Shown piece after piece: positions 4,014-59,215 of a DNA stretch of 64,000 nucleotides (positions are counted from its first letter, which is position 1; each line of letters starts with the position of its first letter). The DNA comes from Bacillota bacterium (GTDB lineage: Bacteria > Bacillota > UBA4882 > UBA10575). A model generated the notes under the pieces. It did not search any database and was not told the DNA's origin. It saw only the letters and a program-made list of their open reading frames with translations. The DNA is taken from positions 10,301 to 74,300 of the forward strand of contig DUQR01000035.1 in the NCBI GenBank assembly GCA_012837715.1, given 5' to 3'. A program made the translations under genes and the position numbers.

Positions 4014-4202
4014 CTGAAAACGAAAGTCGATCCCGATCTCTGTATTGCCTGCGGGTTATGTGTCAGCGCTTGTCCGGACCTTTATTCCTGGGATGACGAT
4101 GGAAAAGCCAAGGCCATTGATGGTCCGGTTCCGGAAGAGCAGGAATCCTGTGCGGAAGAAGCAGCGGAAAACTGCCCGACGGATGCCATTAGCACGGACT
4201 AG
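4014..4202 (+). CDS. Small ferredoxin (single [3Fe-4S]/[4Fe-4S] cluster type)
   Basis: Motif CIACGLCVSACP ... CP is typical of ~60-aa ferredoxins. The track ORF begins at GTG 3924 but would then overlap the divergent regulator's 5' end. A strong RBS GAAGGGGGTGA sits 5 nt upstream of an in-frame CTG at 4014. The start is uncertain; the stop is firm. Confidence 0.7.
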   Translation: MKTKVDPDLCIACGLCVSACPDLYSWDDDGKAKAIDGPVPEEQESCAEEAAENCPTDAISTD

Positions 4203-7200
4203 GCGGTCCCATCTTTAATCGAAAATAGGGAACGGAGATCAGCGGATTAGGGAAAAACGCTTGATCGCCGTTTTTTAATTTAACGACAAATCTGTATTTA
4301 AGTAGGGAAGGGGGTAACAGTTGCGCGCCGCTAAGATCAAGATCAACTCTATATTCATCATCGGCATCTCCGCGCTCCATCATTACCTGATTTGTCAAAT
4401 TTTTTTCGTTTATGTAATAAATAATAACCTTTTCCACTTCGGTGGTCGGACGGACCGTACATTTTAAGGTGATCAAATCCTCTCCATCAGCGGGGGATGG
4501 CGGAAAGTGAAACAAAGTTGGGGATAGAGCGCCGGTTTGCCGGACCGGTACGGAAAAGGGCTGATCAAAACTGCCCAAGGATCCTTCTTTACCGCGGTTG
4601 TCCAAGGCGGTTATGTAATAATTGATTAAGTGACCTTGTTCTAAATAGGCGGCCGGAATAGTGGCAAGATACCCGTTGTTACCGACCGGCGTCATAATCA
4701 ACATGTGATAACCCCGCTCATTTTCGGTCTGATAGTTTAAGATCACTTGTCCGATGGGATTAACTCCCGTGACCGAGGCACGGATCGATAATGGTTCTTC
4801 CCGAATCCAACCGTTTAAGGGGATATGTCGAATCAGTGGCGCAACCGGATGAATTGTTAACGCTGAAATAAACCAATCTTGGTCCGGTGGGCAAGAGAAA
4901 GAAAAGATTAGTTTTCCGTCGGTCACTTCAATGGTTTCCCGCAAGTCAACCCTTTTACCGGGCGAAACCACCAATTCGTCGGCAAGAATCCGATCATTAA
5001 CGGTAACGCGCATCGGCCCATGTCGACGGGCTTCCGGAGAATGATCGCTAAAGGTTAACTGGACCTGATAAGCGCCGGGATTTAGATCAACCTGGAAAGA
5101 AGCGGGCTGGCGCGACCAGATCAATTTATTCAAGAGCTGGTTTTCGTAGGGGTGAAACTGGTTAATTCCTGCCGCTTTCGCCAGGAATAGATCCCGTTCG
5201 GAAAGGCGAACGGCTGGAGCAGGAGTAGCTTGTAAATCCCTGGTATTAAGCCAGCCATAGCCGATCTCCGGATCATAGGCGGCTTGAGCATGGAGAAAAG
5301 TAAAACCCTCTTCTATATAATAATCGGGGTATATATTCTTTTCTTCCTCACCGTCGGTAGAGACCGGTTGGCCACCAAAATCAAAACCAACAAGAAAAGC
5401 CCCTCGCTTTCGGTATTCGGCCAGGAGGATTTGGAGTCTTTTTTCATCTTCCATCAGTAATAGACGGCTATCAGCCGAACGGGCGGTAAAGGGTAACCTT
5501 TCCCAGCACAAACGGGCCTCTTTCAAGAAATGTAAAGCCTTCTCCAGGCAAAAGGGATCTTTCGTCTCCATGAAGAGGGCCAGTTCCATTGCGGCCTGTA
5601 ACTTTGCACTGTGGAAGAGGGCAAAACCACCGATCATCTCTGCCTGCTCTAGAGTTTGTTTCCACTCGGTGACATATTCGTCACTGGTATACAGGGTGAG
5701 ATTCTGAAGTTCCTGTGCTTTTTGGCGGATCTCTTGGCCCAAACAGGCAAGTTCCTTTACGACAACCGGAGGGGGAATTTTGGTCGATTCAGTGCGCTCA
5801 AGGATGGTCCGGATGTACTCCCGGCAGTCGGCAAAAAGCGCCGGATCTCCACTGGGCGTCCGGAGATAAGAGGCAAGCAAGCCGCCAGTATCAAATTGCG
5901 ACCCGGGGATTGGCTTTTTATGTATGGTATGGAAGAGCGGTAAGACTTTACCGGTAAGACGGTATAATTCAGCCAGATCATTTCCTTTTTCCCCAAACCG
6001 GCGGTGAAAATCGCGGATTAAAACTTCACCGCTGGTCCCAGGGTGGTAAGCGAGACGACCACAAAGGATGTACCGGTACCAATGGCGGGCGAATTCCCAT
6101 TGCCCAAAGGGTTTACCCCCTACCGGCAATGCCGGGACAAGCTCACTTCCAGTGGAGGTGGGTGCGATTAACTGAAGACAATCGTACCCGTGGTTTTTCA
6201 AGACCGGAAGCAACTGATGAAAATAATCCGGATCCCCCCAGATCAAGGAGGCGGGTGTGGTCAGTTGATAAGCGGGAATAATTTTGGGACCATAATCGGT
6301 GAACAAATCATTTCCTTCTTCTTCAGTTCTTAAATAAGGCAGACCACAGTTACCGTCCCATCCTTCCCTTGTTAAGAAGGTGTTTACCTCGCTAACCTGA
6401 AGCAGATCAATAACGTCAGTGGTTAACTGGTTGGTGTAAAACTTCAGGGTAAGCTTGTTTCCGGTATCTAAAACCGCTTGAACAATGCTATTAAAGGCAA
6501 AATCCGGTTCTAAAGGGGCGCGTTGGAATTTAAATTCCAGTCCCTTAATTTCCGGACAAGCAAAAATTAATTGTTTCAAAGAACGGTAGAGATAAGCCCC
6601 AATATTCTCCGGATTTACCCCGGGTACCCGGAAAGGGAGGGGGGGATAGCCAGGATAATAATTCCATAAACCGAGGTGGAAATCTAATCCGGAATCGCTG
6701 GCCAGTTCGGATAATTCTTTCAAAACCTGTAAATTTCCGGCCCGAACTGCTTCGGGGAGAGGGAAAAGGTTTACTTCTGGATGTTCCGGCACGGAAAGCA
6801 GATAAGGGAAGACCGGTGTGCCGGAAGAAGAATTGAAGACTAACGTGAAACAGTTGAAACGGTTCCGAATCAGCATGGCAAAAAAGGACTGCCAGTAGTC
6901 ACGCTCAAGCGTCCATCCGTTTTTCAGGCGTTCCGAGGGGATAAAATCGAGAACTCCCCGGAGTTTAATCGCGGGCTCTTCTTGCGTGGGTTTGTATAAA
7001 GCAGGAACGGACTGGGCAGTGATGCGTTCCGTCAATTCGTAAAGAACATAGAGGAGCCCTCTGCTATCATAAGCACAGGCCCAAAGGGGGGTTTGATCCC
7101 CTATGGTTAATTCCTGAATCAGGATAGCTTCCGGAGCCGGGGTGAGGGGAACTTGTCCTTGATCAACAAGGTCTCTTAAAATCGGACTTTTTGTGTAGGT

Positions 7201-7365
7201 GCCAATGAGTAAATCTGCCTTGGGGATTTGGTCTGTATATAAGCATAAGTGGACTTTAATATTTTGTTGGCTAAAAGCATGAACCAAACAATCTAAAGCC
7301 TTTTGCGCGCTCAATTCCAAACCATTCGGATTAAGGATCCCGATTTTAATGGCCACTCGTTGCAC
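4189..7365 (-). CDS. Large (1058 aa) multidomain hypothetical protein; glycoside-hydrolase-like N-terminal/TIM-barrel region, malectin/CBM-like and Ig-like beta-sandwich C-terminal domains; no signal peptide
   Basis: Long uninterrupted ORF with a GAGAGG RBS. The domain guess comes from sequence texture only: an alpha/beta N-domain followed by AIKLRGVLDF..., the segment YQVQLTFSDHS...RVTVNDRILADELVV...GKLIFSF, and repeated beta-rich modules. Function is not established. Confidence 0.8.
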   Translation of the reverse strand: MQRVAIKIGILNPNGLELSAQKALDCLVHAFSQQNIKVHLCLYTDQIPKADLLIGTYTKSPILRDLVDQGQVPLTPAPEAILIQELTIGDQTPLWACAYDSRGLLYVLYELTERITAQSVPALYKPTQEEPAIKLRGVLDFIPSERLKNGWTLERDYWQSFFAMLIRNRFNCFTLVFNSSSGTPVFPYLLSVPEHPEVNLFPLPEAVRAGNLQVLKELSELASDSGLDFHLGLWNYYPGYPPLPFRVPGVNPENIGAYLYRSLKQLIFACPEIKGLEFKFQRAPLEPDFAFNSIVQAVLDTGNKLTLKFYTNQLTTDVIDLLQVSEVNTFLTREGWDGNCGLPYLRTEEEGNDLFTDYGPKIIPAYQLTTPASLIWGDPDYFHQLLPVLKNHGYDCLQLIAPTSTGSELVPALPVGGKPFGQWEFARHWYRYILCGRLAYHPGTSGEVLIRDFHRRFGEKGNDLAELYRLTGKVLPLFHTIHKKPIPGSQFDTGGLLASYLRTPSGDPALFADCREYIRTILERTESTKIPPPVVVKELACLGQEIRQKAQELQNLTLYTSDEYVTEWKQTLEQAEMIGGFALFHSAKLQAAMELALFMETKDPFCLEKALHFLKEARLCWERLPFTARSADSRLLLMEDEKRLQILLAEYRKRGAFLVGFDFGGQPVSTDGEEEKNIYPDYYIEEGFTFLHAQAAYDPEIGYGWLNTRDLQATPAPAVRLSERDLFLAKAAGINQFHPYENQLLNKLIWSRQPASFQVDLNPGAYQVQLTFSDHSPEARRHGPMRVTVNDRILADELVVSPGKRVDLRETIEVTDGKLIFSFSCPPDQDWFISALTIHPVAPLIRHIPLNGWIREEPLSIRASVTGVNPIGQVILNYQTENERGYHMLIMTPVGNNGYLATIPAAYLEQGHLINYYITALDNRGKEGSLGSFDQPFSVPVRQTGALSPTLFHFPPSPADGEDLITLKCTVRPTTEVEKVIIYYINEKNLTNQVMMERGDADDEYRVDLDLSGAQLLPPSLLKYRFVVKLKNGDQAFFPNPLISVPYFRLKMGPPSPC

Positions 7366-7507
7366 CTCTCAAAATAAAAGTTAAATTAAGACTAAATTCG
7401 ATTTTAACCGGTATTTTCCTCTTTAATTAGCAATTATTTGTTGTATTTAATCTTCCTGAAGGTGGCTTGTTCTAGAATGATCGAAAATTCCATATAACTG
7501 TGATAGA

Positions 7508-7595
7508 GGGCTTTTTGCGTTGTCTTTGGATTCAACCATTCCCAATATGATATTGTTATTGAAATCCTTTTTCTTGGTTGCAACACAAAAAGCTT
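7508..7595 (-). repeat. Intergenic repeat family, copy A (short form, inverted orientation)
   Basis: GGGCTTTTTGCGTTGTCTTTGGATTCAACC...GGTTGCAACACAAAAAGCTT. The terminal inverted repeat matches at 12 of 13 positions, and there is an internal hairpin GGATTCAA/TTGAAATCC. It ends about 30 nt before the spoIVFA start. Confidence 0.8.
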
Positions 7596-7624
7596 GATAT
7601 AAGGATAAAATGAGGAGAGAACCA

Positions 7625-13452: not shown

Positions 13453-13540
13453 TGTGGGTTTTCGAACCCGTTGTTACCGCACAGTTTTGGCTTTGAAAAA
13501 CCAACCAAATGGTGCCACAACTGGCGAGTCTAAACGGAGG
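13453..13540 (+). ncRNA. L21-leader-like structured 5'UTR upstream of rplU
   Basis: About 90-nt untranslated leader between the promoter and the RBS. It contains hairpins (GGGTT-TTCG-AACCC; TTGG...CCAA). A ribosomal-protein L21 leader is known at this position in Firmicutes. I did not verify the structure against a covariance model. Confidence 0.4.
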
Positions 13541-13547
13541 TGTTTTT

Positions 13548-16223: not shown

Positions 16224-16284
16224 TGACGAAGGGCGGCCATTTATTGGATTTTGAAACATAAAGCGAAGGACAACGTTAAAAGCC
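16224..16284 (+). repeat. Intergenic repeat family, copy D (3' half only)
   Basis: ...TTGGATTTTGAAACATAAAGCGAAGGACAACGTTAAAAGCC aligns with the 3' halves of copies B and C. It lies upstream of proB. Confidence 0.65.
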
Positions 16285-19373: not shown

Positions 19374-19492
19374 GTAATAAGCCAAACCTGAACTAGATTT
19401 CTTCCTAGCTTCAATAATATTTTTTCCCGCGGGCAAAATAAGATGGAGCCTGCAAAGATTATGATTCATAGGCCGGAAACGAGGTGAAGTTG

Positions 19493-19750
19493 GTGAGCAA
19501 AACTCTATATGTCGGCAATTTGCCCTGGGCTACTACAGAAAAGGATTTGGCTGAACTCTTTTCCGATTCCACCCAAGTATTGGCCAGTAGGGTAATTATA
19601 GACCGGGCAACCGGGCGCTCGAAAGGGTTTGGGTTTGTGGAAGTTCCTGATGACCAAGCCGATCAAGTAATTGCCGCAATGAACGGAAAAGAATATGGTG
19701 GACGAGAGATTATCGTAAACGAAGCGAGACCACTGAATTCAACGAGTTAA
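19493..19750 (+). CDS. RRM-type RNA-binding protein
   Basis: RNP2 motif LYVGNL and RNP1 motif KGFGFVEV. The GTG start at 19493 lies 5 nt after GAGGTGA; the track start is 19484. Confidence 0.85.
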   Translation: MSKTLYVGNLPWATTEKDLAELFSDSTQVLASRVIIDRATGRSKGFGFVEVPDDQADQVIAAMNGKEYGGREIIVNEARPLNSTS

Positions 19751-19752
19751 AA

Positions 19753-19776
19753 GGGGTGCGTGGCGCCCCTTTTTTA
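19753..19776 (+). terminator. Intrinsic terminator after RRM-protein gene
   Basis: GGGGTGC-GTG-GCGCCCC followed by TTTTTT. Confidence 0.8.
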
Positions 19777-19849
19777 ATTCTTTAATAAAATGTAAAGCGC
19801 CGGTTTTAACCAGCCTTTTCCTCTCCGAGAAGCAGGGAAAAAGGAAGCT

Positions 19850-19878
19850 TTGTGGAAGAAGATTCAATATACTATAAT
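19850..19878 (+). promoter_or_regulatory. Sigma-A promoter of yqeK-rsfS
   Basis: TTGTGG, 17-nt spacer, TATAAT. This places repeat copy B entirely inside the 5'UTR. Confidence 0.55.
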
Positions 19879-19898
19879 ATTAGCGATCAATTGATGAA

Positions 19899-20016
19899 GC
19901 TTTTTGCGTTACAAACCATTGAAAAGAATTCCAAGACAAAATATCGTATTTAACTTGAGCTTTGCGAAGAATATCATGTATTTGAGATTGTTAAAGCAAA
20001 GGACAACGCAAAAAGC
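19899..20016 (+). repeat. Intergenic repeat family, copy B (full length, 118 nt)
   Basis: GCTTTTTGCGTT (19899-19910) and AACGCAAAAAGC (20005-20016) form a perfect 12-nt terminal inverted repeat. It abuts the yqeK start region. Confidence 0.85.
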
Positions 20017-20028
20017 ATGGGGGTAGAA

Positions 20029-21021: not shown

Positions 21022-21290
21022 AGGATTTTTGATCAATGGCATAAATTTGCTTTATCCAATTACTGATGACGGGGAATAGTAGATTTAGATCCGGGTATAG
21101 AGAACCGGTGGACGGTGCAAACCGGTCCCGGGATCGAATTGAACTCACCCCTGAAGATCGGGAATGAAAGTTCCTGACCCACCAGGGTTAAACGGGAAGA
21201 GGGTTTTCCATCAGGAGAACCGAAACAGGGTGGTACCGCGACAGTTCATCGCCCCTGGTCAACGTATTGACCAGGGGTTTAAATTTTAGT
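21022..21290 (+). promoter_or_regulatory. T-box riboswitch (tRNA-Leu, specifier CUC) controlling leuS
   Basis: Stem I elements are present (TGATGA K-turn, AGAGA bulge, distal GGTGGA...GGTGCAAACC). The specifier loop is GAACTCA, with CTC at 21144-21146. The T-box core AAACAGGGTGGTACCGCG is at 21223-21240. The terminator CCCCTGGTCAA-CGT-ATTGACCAGGGG plus a T-run is at 21252-21287. Confidence 0.9.
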
Positions 21291-37256: not shown

Positions 37257-37313
37257 GAGCTTTTTTTATTTTTTTTTGGAAGATTAGAAACCATTAATTG
37301 AAACGGTAATGAC

Positions 37314-37427
37314 GAGGCTAAAGACAAGCATTAAAAAGAATTGCCTACAGTATGTCGTGTTTACCTTGGATCAAGCGATCAATATCTTGGATTAGAATTG
37401 TTAAAGCCAAGGAGAACGCAAAAAGCC
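37314..37427 (+). repeat. Intergenic repeat family, copy C (near full length, 5' terminus diverged)
   Basis: ...CATTAAAAAGAATTGCC...TTACCTTGGATCAAGCGATCAATATCTTGGATTAGAATTGTTAAAGCCAAGGAGAACGCAAAAAGCC aligns along most of copy B. Confidence 0.8.
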
Positions 37428-37674
37428 TAAAACCGGGATTAGCTGGGGATTTTTGAGCGTAAGGGGGAACGATGGGAATAATCATTACGTGGGGAAGTGA
37501 GAGAAGGTATAATTGAATTTTCAACGAATTAATATTGTAGTGAAGGGAATTGCATATTGATCGCATCGCTCCATGGCCGATATAAAGGCTTCTATCGTGT
37601 CTTGCTTCAGCTTTGCTTCTCTTGGCTGTCGTATGCGTTTCCTTGACAAAATTACCGGAAAAAGGGGTGTCAAA

Positions 37675-40772: not shown

Positions 40773-40930
40773 AATTAACTATCCCTCATGTTAACATAAT
40801 TTACGTTACTTTACTCAACATTCGGCTTTCAGCTTGGAAAACCTTTATGTAGATAAAACCAGATTAGTATAGGATTACAAAATCTCTGACCAATTACTCA
40901 GCCGGGGCCGAATGTTATCCGCTTCGTTTA

Positions 40931-41047
40931 GGCTTTTTGCGTTTCTCTTTGCATCAATAATTCCAACACAATATATTAATCGTCCGATTGAGGATAAACA
41001 CTATATATTGTAATGAAAGCCAATCGAACGGTGCAACGCAAAAAGCT
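40931..41047 (-). repeat. Intergenic repeat family, copy E (full length, inverted orientation)
   Basis: GGCTTTTTGCGTTTCTCTTTGCATCAATAATTCC...GGTGCAACGCAAAAAGCT. It has a perfect 12-nt terminal inverted repeat (40932-40943 and 41035-41046). Confidence 0.85.
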
Positions 41048-41288
41048 TTGCCCCGAATCCTCTGGCAGGAAATTCAGGTCGAATGGAGAATACCGTTTGG
41101 CCCGAGCGAAAGATGGAACAGGCTTCAATTTTTCATTCTTTATTGTGCGGGCCGTGGCTAGCGCGCGACTTTTTAGTAAAGAATTGATTTCATAATCGAG
41201 TAAAGAAAGGGGTTTTCTTTCCCGATCGCGAATAGGCGAATAATATCGGTTTCTTGACCGTCGAAACAACAATCAAGGCCCGCCGTGT

Positions 41289-43568: not shown

Positions 43569-44927
43569 GTGCCTAAAAAGAATCCAGGAGCGGTTATTGC
43601 TTCCGTCGCCCCCCGTAGTTTAGGGGAGCGTCTTGGGTTGCAGGCCGGTGACGTGATCGTTAAACTGAACGGGAAGCAGATCCCCGATCTCATCGCTTAT
43701 GAGCTAGAAGAAGCCCAAGAAAACCTGGTCATCGAAGTAGAGAAAGTAAACGGGGAATATTGGGAGTACGAAGTGGAGAAAAACGAGACAGAAGGCTTGG
43801 GGATAACCTTTACGACCGCAGTTTTTGATGGGATTAGACCCTGCCGCAACCACTGTCTATTCTGCTTTGTCGATCAAATGCCACGGGGGCAACGACCGTC
43901 TTTATACATAAAAGATGATGATTACCGTCTTTCTTTCTTACAAGGAAGTTATATCACGTTGACCAATCTGACCGATGCCGATTGGGAACGGATTCACCGC
44001 CTCCGTTTAAGCCCGCTTTACATTTCAGTACATGCCACCGATCCGCAGGTGAGAAAGGAACTCTTAGGTAACGACCGAGCCGGTGATGTTCTTGCGCAAC
44101 TACGTCAACTGGCGGCGTGGGGAGGATACTTCCATACTCAAGCCGTTCTTTGTCCCGGACTTAATGATGGCTTGGTCCTGGAGCATACCATCACCGAGCT
44201 GGGCGAGTTTTGGCCCAACTTACGCAGTATCGCCATCGTTCCGGTGGGACTGACCGGCCACCGCGCCCACTTAACCCCTTTACGGAAGTTTCAGCCGGGG
44301 GAGGCAAAAGCGGTATTACGGATCGTCCATCGTGCTCAAGAGCGTTTTATGTCAGCCTATGGCAGTCGGCTGGTCTTTCCTGCCGATGAATTTTATCTCC
44401 AGGCCATGGAGGAATTCCCACCAGTGGAAGCCTATGAAGATCTACTTCAACTGGAAAATGGGATTGGATTATGGCCCTTATTCAAAGCCCAATTTATCAA
44501 CGCATTGGAAAAATTCCGTAGGGAAGGGCCGCGGAGAGGGAAACCCAGTCACTTTCTGGTTATTACCGGAACCGATGCGGCCAAATTATGGCAAGAGCTC
44601 CGGGCCTTAATCGAACCCGTTTTTCCCTGGGTCAAGATCCATATATTACCGGTAACCAATTATTTTTTTGGCCCGGAAGTTACCGTTACGGGACTGGTCA
44701 CGGGGGAGGATATCTGCCGCGCCCTCACCAGGACAGATCTGAAAAACAGTCCCCTTCTTTTACTACCCAGGGTAATGTTACGCCACCCGGAAAACGTTTT
44801 TTTAGACGGCATGACCCTGCAGCAATTGCAGGCAAAAGTTCCCCTTCCGATTAAAGTAATCGATGTCGATGGGGAGGAAGTTGTCAAGACCTTACTTGGA
44901 ATAAGCTTTTTCCGTTCTGACCAATAA
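43569..44927 (+). CDS. PDZ-domain radical SAM protein (DUF512 family, function unknown)
   Basis: N-terminal PDZ (LGLQAGDVIVKLNGKQI) and cluster motif CRNHCLFCF (CX3CX2C). It sits immediately upstream of der, as in many Firmicutes. Confidence 0.8.
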   Translation: MPKKNPGAVIASVAPRSLGERLGLQAGDVIVKLNGKQIPDLIAYELEEAQENLVIEVEKVNGEYWEYEVEKNETEGLGITFTTAVFDGIRPCRNHCLFCFVDQMPRGQRPSLYIKDDDYRLSFLQGSYITLTNLTDADWERIHRLRLSPLYISVHATDPQVRKELLGNDRAGDVLAQLRQLAAWGGYFHTQAVLCPGLNDGLVLEHTITELGEFWPNLRSIAIVPVGLTGHRAHLTPLRKFQPGEAKAVLRIVHRAQERFMSAYGSRLVFPADEFYLQAMEEFPPVEAYEDLLQLENGIGLWPLFKAQFINALEKFRREGPRRGKPSHFLVITGTDAAKLWQELRALIEPVFPWVKIHILPVTNYFFGPEVTVTGLVTGEDICRALTRTDLKNSPLLLLPRVMLRHPENVFLDGMTLQQLQAKVPLPIKVIDVDGEEVVKTLLGISFFRSDQ

Positions 44928-44957
44928 AAAAGAGTCCTATCCAATATATAGTGTTCA

Positions 44958-45019
44958 GCTTAACTTGGGCGATCAATTATTGTATTGGAATTATTTGAGC
45001 AAAAAGAACGCAAAAAGCC
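44958..45019 (+). repeat. Intergenic repeat family, copy F (3' half)
   Basis: GCTTAACTTGGGCGATCAATTATTGTATTGGAATTATTTGAGCAAAAAGAACGCAAAAAGCC. It ends 20 nt before the der start codon. Confidence 0.75.
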
Positions 45020-45038
45020 CTGGAATGGAGGAGGAGTA

Positions 45039-46349
45039 ATGCCCAAACCCATTGTGGCGATTGTTGGTCGGCCTAACGTTGGTAAATCCACCTTATTCAA
45101 CCGGATTATTGGCGAAAGGGTCGCCATCGTGGAAGGGACCCCGGGAATTACCAGGGATCGTCTGTACCGGGAAACCCAGTGGTTGGAAAGATCCTTTTTA
45201 CTGGTAGATACCGGTGGAATTAGCGGCAACAAAAACGACCCTTTCACCGTCAAAGTATATAACCAGGCGAAAATAGCGATCGAAGAAGCCGATGTTATTT
45301 GGTTTGTAGTTGATGCCCGGGAGGGTCTTCACCCCTTGGATCAAGAGATTGCCGAGATCCTGCGTAAAACCAAAAAACCCTTAATTTTAGTGGGAAACAA
45401 AGCCGATACTTATGACCCGGCACTGGCCAGTGATTTTTATCCCCTCGGGTTCGGACCGCCCATCTTAATCTCGGCTGAACATGGGTTAAACCTTGGTGAT
45501 CTTCTGGAGCGAACCGTAGCCGAATTCCCGGACGGGCAAGAGGAAGAGGAAGAAGCAATCCGGGTCGCCTTGATTGGCCGTCCAAACAGTGGAAAGTCTT
45601 CACTCCTCAACGCCTTGTTGGGTGAAGAAAGGACCATTGTGAGCTCGATTCCGGGTACTACACGCGATGCGATTGATACTCCCCTTCAACACGAAGGGAT
45701 CAATTACATTCTGGTCGATACAGCCGGAATCCGCCGGAAAGCGAGGGTCGAAGAAGCTGTCGAGTATTATAGTGTGCTCCGGGCTATTCGGGCAGTCGAA
45801 AGGGCTGATGTGGCCCTTGTGATCCTCGATGCCACCGACTTCTTGGCCGAACAGGACAAAAAAGTGGCCGGAATTGCCCATGAGGCCGGAAAGGCGGTCG
45901 TAATCGCGGTCAATAAGTGGGATCTAGTGGAGAAAGACGACCGGACCGCCCAAGACTATTTGGAAAAAATCCGCCGGGAACTCTCTTTTTTAGATTATGC
46001 TCCGGTCCTCTTTATTTCGGCGAAAACTGGGCAAAGAATCACCCGAATTTTACCTGAGGTTTTTACGGTCGCTAATGAATATACCAAGCGGATTCCGACG
46101 CGGGTTTTAAACGAACTGCTGCGGGAAGCCCTTCTTCGACACCAACCACCGGCCCATAAAGGTAAACAACTAAAAGTCTATTATGCAACGCAAATTAAGG
46201 TCAAGCCGCCCACGTTTCAACTATGGGTGAATGATCCAGCGTTAATGCATTTTTCTTTTCGCCGGTTTTTAGAGAACCAACTGAGATCGGCTTTTGGTTT
46301 CACCGGATCGCCCATACATTTTTTAGTCAGAAAAAGAACAAAGGCTTGA
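45039..46349 (+). CDS. der: Ribosome-associated GTPase Der/EngA (double G domain + KH-like)
   Basis: Two P-loops (GRPNVGKST and GRPNSGKSS) and a GGAGGAGG RBS. The track's 18-codon N-terminal extension is translated repeat sequence. Confidence 0.95.
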   Translation: MPKPIVAIVGRPNVGKSTLFNRIIGERVAIVEGTPGITRDRLYRETQWLERSFLLVDTGGISGNKNDPFTVKVYNQAKIAIEEADVIWFVVDAREGLHPLDQEIAEILRKTKKPLILVGNKADTYDPALASDFYPLGFGPPILISAEHGLNLGDLLERTVAEFPDGQEEEEEAIRVALIGRPNSGKSSLLNALLGEERTIVSSIPGTTRDAIDTPLQHEGINYILVDTAGIRRKARVEEAVEYYSVLRAIRAVERADVALVILDATDFLAEQDKKVAGIAHEAGKAVVIAVNKWDLVEKDDRTAQDYLEKIRRELSFLDYAPVLFISAKTGQRITRILPEVFTVANEYTKRIPTRVLNELLREALLRHQPPAHKGKQLKVYYATQIKVKPPTFQLWVNDPALMHFSFRRFLENQLRSAFGFTGSPIHFLVRKRTKA

Positions 46350-58947: not shown

Positions 58948-59120
58948 TAGAGCGAAGGTAAACCCTGCTGTGCGCGTGACGAAGCTGATGTATTGAACCA
59001 ACACATTTACCTAGGGAGCTGTACTCTGGTTGTCGGCATGTAAGCCTTTCCAAGAGAAGGACACATAAAGCATCCGGGAGGCACCCACCTGTGAGAGCGG
59101 GTTCAGGTAATCTTCAGCCG
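58948..59120 (+). ncRNA. ssrS: Candidate 6S RNA (SsrS)
   Basis: About 170-nt non-coding transcript with its own promoter. The ends pair: 5' GAAGGTA/AACCC/GCT with 3' AGC/GGGTT/TAATCTTC. The 3' arm CACCTGTGAGAGCGGGTTCAGGTAATCTTCAGCC resembles the conserved 3' arm of E. coli 6S as I recall it (CACCUUGAACCAAGGGUUCAAGGGUUACAGCC). Its position downstream of aspS matches Bacillus 6S-1, and its position upstream of 5-formyl-THF cyclo-ligase matches the ssrS-ygfA synteny of proteobacteria. Confidence 0.6.
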
Positions 59121-59147
59121 TAAACGACATGGCGGGGTTTTATTACG

Positions 59148-59215
59148 GGTTTTTTCCGTTGTCCTTTGCTTTAACCATCCCCATCAATTATTATCTTGTA
59201 TAAACTTTTCTGGTC
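59148..59215 (-). repeat. Intergenic repeat family, copy G (3' half, inverted orientation)
   Basis: GGTTTTTTCCGTTGTCCTTTGCTTTAACCATCCCCATCAATTATTATC... is the reverse complement of ...TTAAAGCAAAGGACAACGGAAAAAACC. It lies between the candidate 6S RNA and the 5-FCL gene. Confidence 0.7.

Follow-up and report, generated by a model that had tools for sequence, protein, structure and literature searches.

A dispersed 118-bp repeat of an uncultured Bacillota clade, very probably a MITE family

The window, by which is meant the whole stretch of 64,000 nucleotides that was analysed, derives from the genome of a spore-forming member of the Bacillota whose genes include those for Spo0A, SpoIVB, SpoIVA, Obg, Der, LeuS (behind a T-box) and 6S RNA. 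The closest named relative is Capillibacterium thermochitinicola, with 72% identity in the DUF512 protein and 68% in YqeK. Leaders are found in front of two genes, an L21 leader before rplU (window 13465-13541) and the T-box leader before leuS (window 21057-21259). The segment under study, 19899-20016, is located in the leader of yqeK. It is preceded by a gene for an 88-aa RRM_1-domain protein that is followed by a strong terminator-like hairpin (window 19484-19773, with the hairpin at 19749-19773), and by a block upstream of yqeK that is conserved in four species (window 19830-19875, GCAGGGAAA...GCTTTGTGGAA.AAGAT.TAATATACTAT). The segment has GCTTTTTGCGTT at its 5' end and the exact reverse complement of GCTTTTTGCGTT at its 3' end.

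With at most one mismatch, GCTTTTTGCGTT occurs ten times in the window, where 0.93 occurrences are expected, and the paired-terminus pattern is found in copies B, E and F against an expectation of 0.00. An nhmmer profile made from the window copies and run on the window returned seven matches, which are given below with the profile interval and the E-value of each copy; the two copies of the target duplication at F are included.

7508..7595, minus strand: copy A, short form of 88 nt with about 30 nt of the core deleted (window profile 7507-7596, E=2e-16)
16233..16284, plus strand: relic D, right-end fragment of about 50 nt upstream of proB, marginal (window profile 16233-16284, E=0.02)
19897..20016, plus strand: copy B, the copy flagged at the outset, full length, 120 nt, perfect 12-bp termini at 19899-19910 and 20005-20016 (window profile 19896-20019, E=5e-30)
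37314..37427, plus strand: copy C, right terminus intact (37415-37426), left terminus lost or degenerate (window profile 37302-37429, E=4e-29)
40931..41048, minus strand: copy E, full length, 118 nt, perfect termini at 40932-40943 and 41035-41046, in the divergent intergenic region from a GH18/SH3 gene to a peptidase M16 gene (window profile 40929-41050, E=4e-32)
44897..44902, plus strand: left duplication copy of F, TGGAAT, by direct reading; the relative L122 has a single CTTGGATTGGAGG at the site
44903..45020, plus strand: copy F, full length, 118 nt, termini at 44905-44916 (GCTTTTTCCGTT) and 45007-45018 (window profile 44902-45022, E=3e-30)
45021..45026, plus strand: right duplication copy of F, TGGAAT, by direct reading
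59147..59192, minus strand: relic G, right-end fragment of about 45 nt, E=3e-4 with the family profile (window profile 59146-59192, E=4e-5)

A second profile, composed mostly of copies from other genomes, returned the same seven window matches and none beyond. The repeat is thus confirmed as a real family with five solid copies that align over their whole length (A, B, C, E and F) and two right-end relics (D and G). This agrees with the sequence-only reading in that a dispersed family is present with copies in both orientations, nhmmer having recovered it on both strands, and in that B and E carry a perfect 12-bp terminal inverted repeat, as read directly from their termini. The proposed number of seven copies stands insofar as both profiles recover seven, but D and G are mere marginal fragments of about 45-50 nt from the right end: D reaches E=0.004 with the family profile and shares 77% identity with the right end of B over a stretch of 30 nt, and for G the complementarity to that end is 93% over 29 nt. 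The description of A as a short form with the same termini holds for its 88 nt and for the presence of both ends, of which 7510-7521 is perfect but 7582-7593 carries one mismatch (GTGTT); a profile built without copy A still detects it at E=4e-9. Copy F had been placed at 44958-45019, which has to be corrected since it is full length (44903-45020) and has both termini. The loss of the left terminus of C, whose alignment with the family profile starts at 37331 (E=1e-20), is a point missing from that earlier account. The statement that the repeat is confined to intergenic DNA needs one small qualification, namely that 25 nt at the left end of F are now coding and form the end of the upstream DUF512 gene.

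Two neighbours of these copies may be described in passing. Downstream of copy A lies an ORF of 1058 aa on the minus strand (window 4189-7365) that has no Pfam match at E<=1e-5 and that recurs in the conspecific metagenome contigs. Relic G lies on the strand opposite the 6S RNA gene and directly adjoins the 3' end of that gene (window 58959-59192); its terminus reads ACGGGTTTTTTCCGT on the plus strand, directly following 6S, where it might add a T-run or a small hairpin to the end of the gene.

The element is about 118 bp long (copies range from 88 to 124 nt), non-coding and devoid of an ORF of its own. Its ends are AAGCTTTTTGCGTTG...CAACGCAAAAAGCCC and the family consensus is AAGCTTTTTGCGTTGTATCCTTTTTAAAAGGTCCCAATACAATATATAGTGTTTGACTTGTATTAGGCTATCAATATATTGTATnGGGATAGTTAAATCAAATGACAACGCAAAAAGCCC. 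The terminal inverted repeats of 12-16 bp, for which the family motif is GGGCTTTTTGCGTTG, extend imperfectly to about 47 bp, so that the arms form a three-part inverted repeat made up of a near-perfect terminus of 14-16 bp, a variable middle and an inner arm of 15 bp, in which CCCAATACAATATAT pairs with ATATATTGTATTGGG in the consensus. In 50 copies the outer helix, which has 14 pairs, is 97.3% paired. At the very ends the dinucleotides differ, with AA on the left and CC on the right, an asymmetry that is unusual among terminal repeats and counts against an assignment to the MITEs. Other elements of the clade have common termini and unrelated cores, as in the pairs L048/L077 and L037/L051. These sister subfamily copies are located as follows.

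L048, 4085-4195: sister subfamily copy
L077, 4322-4435: sister subfamily copy
L037, 5314-5420: sister subfamily copy
L051, 3880-3986: sister subfamily copy
L039, 6359-6394: 36-nt form consisting of the termini alone

The common termini of the sister subfamilies read GCTTTTTG(C/T)GTTGT, and one of the cores is GC-rich. Since subfamilies combine common termini with unrelated cores, and a form with termini alone exists, the termini are the unit that matters, as expected for recognition by a transposase. The copies in L037 and L051 are orthologous and their two species are about 83% identical. A further copy, L072 1478-1620, carries a compensated change in both termini (GCTTTTTCCGTT ... AACGGAAAAAGC); 5 bp further on (TTGAA, the same 5-mer that precedes the copy) a second copy starts and is followed by a scaffold gap, an arrangement that may represent a tandem or nested insertion.

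Target-site duplications were counted in 48 non-redundant copies from several uncultured Bacillota genomes with the ends fixed at AAGC...GCCC. A perfect 5-mer abuts both ends in 17 of the 48 copies, where 0.65 are expected, and 1000 shuffles of the flank pairing gave a maximum of 4; the presence of target-site duplications is therefore established beyond what the shuffles produce. The flanking 5-mers agree at four of five positions in five more copies, and in roughly half of the copies no duplication can be recognised. Most duplications measure 5 bp, that of F measures 6 bp, and the target consensus, approximately C-T-[T-A-N-T-A]-R-G, is AT-rich and palindromic. A duplication of 9 or 8 bp, ISL3- or IS6-like, was considered and rejected, as the flanks match at the central five positions only and the adjacent AA and CC are fixed and thus belong to the element.

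Empty sites were found in relatives at the same loci for B, C, E and F, and together with the target-site duplications they show mobility of the element. Copy F inserted near the very end of the DUF512 gene, among its last codons, and lies immediately upstream of der, 18 nt from the der start codon. In L122 (GCA_012735135.1), whose DUF512 protein is 78% identical to that of the window, the locus reads ...CTTGGATTGGAGGAGGAGTAATG... and the DUF512 stop overlaps the der start, where the window has ...CTTGGAAT-[118-nt element]-TGGAATGGAGGAGGAGTAATG... instead. DUF512 homologues end in ...TLLGLEEE* or ...LLGMEEK; the window protein, a radical-SAM protein (region 43569-45041), ends in ...TLLGISFFRSDQ*, its tail ...LLGISFFRSDQ* being encoded by the left terminus of F, of which the left 25 nt supply the last eight codons and the stop of the gene. 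When F and one TGGAAT are taken out in silico, the ancestral tail LLGMEEE* is restored, and so is the overlap with the der start. By this comparison the insertion of F exchanged the final four codons of DUF512 for others and broke the TAATG stop/start overlap with der. The separation of the two genes made by F amounts to 111 nt (they are 13 nt apart in L037), and the old GGAGGAGGAG is left serving only as the ribosome-binding site of der.

In the 5' UTR of yqeK, copy B separates a promoter-like block from the ribosome-binding site and lies 12 nt from the start codon. L123, L124 (Capillibacterium) and L125 lack it in the corresponding intergenic region, in which both flanks align and the block GCTTTGTGGAA.AAGAT.TAATATACTAT is conserved upstream of yqeK; in these relatives the block is followed by a spacer of about 15-25 nt, a TGGGGGT ribosome-binding site and the start codon. 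The block looks like the native promoter (TTGTGG-17-TATACT), and B, just downstream of it, has added 120 nt capable of forming a hairpin to the 5' UTR of yqeK. Copies E and C lie within window-specific blocks that are absent from L122, where the flanks are well aligned.

For the distribution of the family, the paired termini were scanned in one genome per species and the 108 returned stretches were searched with the profile, which separated members from chance palindromes in unrelated phyla. At least about 55 true members exist outside the window, so that the search of related genomes did yield further copies; the MAGs were sampled as 8-kb stretches and copy numbers are lower bounds. Among the matches listed, members come mostly from the MAGs UBA5388, UBA5486 and UBA11021, with a few in CTOTU40321 and some in other genomes, and variants with the same termini and different cores are found in OH_CBB_75, JPNG_maxbin.050 and AS09scLD_265. 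The Obg protein of UBA11021 is 78% identical to that of the window, which places the UBA5388, UBA5486 and UBA11021 genomes and the window genome in one clade, and the family appears to be confined to this uncultured Bacillota clade. None of 56 copies is located inside a long ORF. In UBA11021 a truncated copy (L064 5226-5310, the left terminus plus ...AAAAAGCCCC) sits directly upstream of the obg start codon, with a full copy 1 kb further upstream, and is another insertion promoter-proximal to a housekeeping gene.

The copies differ greatly in age. Mean pairwise identity within a genome is 93% in UBA5486, 89% in UBA5388 and 82% in UBA11021, whereas the window copies share a mean of 63% (range 59-69%), a contrast which implies that the family is old and decayed in the window genome and was recently active elsewhere. 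Many of the UBA5486 copies are found almost directly at contig ends, a few bases away at most, as is typical of a high-copy repeat that breaks short-read assemblies. Decay in the window takes the form of one internal deletion, one lost terminus and two fragments, and the family is probably inactive or immobile in this genome. Metagenome contigs of the same species carry identical copies of B and A and keep the 111-nt DUF512-der spacer of F, and B and F are present in all such contigs that were checked; B, A and F are therefore fixed.

Taken together, the element very probably represents a MITE family, whose members, DNA transposons of about 118 bp, have inverted-repeat arms, lack coding capacity and would be moved in trans. 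It has every structural feature of a MITE, being well under 1 kb, non-coding, bounded by terminal inverted repeats, flanked by target-site duplications and dispersed in copies with insertion polymorphism; an identified helper is the one feature that is lacking. The first of the two options in the sequence-only reading, a MITE-like non-autonomous mobile element, is borne out by the termini, the 5-bp duplications, the empty sites and the near-identical, contig-breaking copies in relatives. It is proposed that a transposase encoded elsewhere would bind the common termini, that the bound element would be excised or copied, and that insertion would take place at staggered cuts 5 bp, or sometimes 6 bp, apart in AT-rich targets (about CT-TANTA-RG), the repair of which would leave the flanking direct repeats. 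What has been observed of this scheme comprises termini, duplications, empty sites, spread in multiple copies and restriction to one lineage; mobilisation in trans would be the work of a DDE-type transposase.

No transposase was found in the window, for which 20 ORFs were scanned and the remainder was covered by gene calls on syntenic contigs, and on this point both lines agree with what had been read from the sequence. No IS-like long repeats were found among 112 loci in an all-against-all BLAST, the MAGs being covered by 8-kb samples, and the search for a full-length parent at termini outside the known copies returned short forms, scaffold-gapped copies and fragments only. A BLAST search of the consensus against 72,556 plasmids gave nothing at E<=1, by a method that is blind to similarity restricted to the termini, and no relative was found in phages by the same means apart from one chance match of 46 nt (E=0.1). 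The 16-mer terminus has 104 single matches in viral contigs, none of which is a family member by profile search, and the element is not phage-borne in the viral-contig collection searched. A literature search for the terminal 12-mers, which did not extend to the supplements of the 2024 MITE census, returned unrelated primers only. The sequence-only reading had recognised no named family in the repeat, and none was matched here in Rfam, plasmids, phages or the literature.

An alternative reading of the same palindrome is that the repeats are structured cis-regulatory or small RNA modules, the stems of which act as a functional RNA hairpin, for instance in regulation from the 5' UTR, in processing or in termination. 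Single copies do fold better than shuffled sequences (z -2.3 to -4.0), many of them lie just upstream of start codons (B at 12 nt, F at 18 nt), and a two-helix model, for which RNAalifold gave the outer stem only and the inner arm was specified by hand, has 93.8% of its cells paired. The compensatory changes that had been looked for in the stem exist at nine pairs with double-sided changes, six in the inner arm and three in the outer arm, and between subfamilies the covarying pairs CCCAAT/ATTGGG, TCCGGT/ACCGGA, TCGAT/ATCGA and CCTGT/ACAGG are found. The arm covariation is real, but with a palindromic element the two strands fold about equally well, and G:U-type mismatches (26) are not commoner than A:C-type mismatches (34; p=0.37), which points to symmetry at the DNA level and not to selection on the RNA of one strand. 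The copies occur in both orientations, and in tandem intergenic regions 21 are co-directional and 12 opposite (two-sided p=0.16, with crude ORF calls). A gathering-score scan of the window with Rfam has no match at the copies, and in an E-value scan of three consensus-bearing loci the sole overlap is a match to a microRNA model at E=0.17, so that Rfam offers nothing relevant at either. The duplications and empty sites moreover indicate DNA insertion, and B and C in the window show a decayed inner stem. RNA modules, which the sequence-only reading had offered as its other option, are on this evidence very improbable. The covarying arms are better explained by both ends having to fit one transposase, or by a hairpin-forming DNA intermediate, and in the inner arm the covariation could reflect a hairpin requirement rather than pure protein recognition.

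A different possibility is that mobile elements were later domesticated as portable promoters or operators, with an internal TTGACT-16-TATATT driving the gene beyond the right end and old copies being retained for this reason. The consensus does contain this sequence as a 10/12 sigma-70-like match that faces the right end, B keeps TTAACT-16-TATCAT, in the window each of the five strong copies is oriented toward the 5' end of the closest gene downstream, and functional promoters have been reported in Correia elements and TIMEs (PMC3184786, PMC4133298). The scan nevertheless amounts to a consensus match and is no evidence of function; promoter-like matches occur on both strands of an AT-rich palindrome, the -35 differs between subfamilies (TTGACT, TTCAAC, TTGGGC), the orientation bias across genomes is not significant (21:12), and yqeK would have needed no new promoter since the promoter-like block is kept in relatives without B. 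Promoter activity of the element is possible, but its domestication as a promoter or operator is highly unlikely. In a broader form, in which old copies would be retained as a portable regulatory cassette, either through an outward promoter or through a 5' UTR hairpin that is processed or modulates the translation of yqeK-rsfS and der, the idea is still unlikely, and if it were true the covarying inner arms would reflect selection on the hairpin. REP/BIME-like palindromes, spread by RAYT or by an IS200/IS605-type single-strand (Y1) transposase and not by DDE cut-and-paste, would likewise account for a long hairpin-forming palindrome with covarying arms and for the failure to find a DDE transposase. 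REPs are short (about 20-40 nt), GC-rich palindromes without target duplication, and Y1 transposases are not known to make target-site duplications. The element at hand is by contrast AT-rich and about 118 nt long with 5-bp duplications at a palindromic target, and no tnpA/RAYT-like gene was seen among the window ORFs, which makes this origin exceedingly improbable; the term REP-like in the sequence-only reading does not fit.

The value of the family lies in annotation and assembly, as it accounts for broken contigs in the MAGs of an uncultured Bacillota clade, marks lineage-specific insertions, and separates old activity from recent bursts by the divergence of its copies. It also explains the changed C-terminus of the DUF512 protein and the 120-nt insert in the yqeK leader. 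Knowledge of mobile elements in general is unchanged by it, and the point of some interest is which transposase moves the element, none having been found. MITEs occur in 56.5% of prokaryotic genomes and form more than 100,000 clusters (2024 census, PMC11602168), a frequency that makes a new MITE family ordinary; the present one appears to be new to description and yet an ordinary kind of element.

Among known systems, the bacterial MITEs Correia/CREE of Neisseria, RUP of Streptococcus pneumoniae and ERIC resemble the element in being non-coding and about 100-160 bp long, with terminal inverted repeats and flanking direct repeats, and in being intergenic, often 5' of genes, with a long hairpin and possible promoter-like sequence (PMC3184786). 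They differ in that no sequence relationship was detected, in that the duplication here is 5 bp and TANTA-like and not TA as in the Correia/ERIC type, and in their hosts, which here are an uncultured Bacillota clade related to Capillibacterium. Correia elements have a TA target duplication and 26-bp Neisseria-specific termini (PMC3184786), and membership in that family was rejected on the 5-bp TANTA-like duplication and the different termini; membership among the REP/BIME sequences was rejected on size, base composition and the 5-bp duplications. The bcr1 repeat of the Bacillus cereus group is, like the present element, a Firmicute intergenic repeat (about 155 bp) with 5-bp direct repeats, a distribution that is not conserved between related strains, and compensatory changes that keep a hairpin or cruciform (PMC3184786). 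It is set apart by its description as specific to the B. cereus group and cruciform-like with two independent stem loops, whereas the element described here is shorter and forms one long hairpin. TIMEs are likewise non-autonomous; their termini are long (38 bp, where the arms here extend to about 47 bp), their core is less conserved and promoters may be present (PMC4133298), and the 5- or 6-bp duplications in AT-rich targets are shared between them and the element. Unlike the element, which is 118 bp long and present in high copy, TIMEs measure 262 bp, are usually single-copy, reside on Pseudomonas plasmids and have termini homologous to Tn3-family repeats. By their descriptions TIMEs and bcr1 are the closest to the element in behaviour, and membership in neither is claimed.
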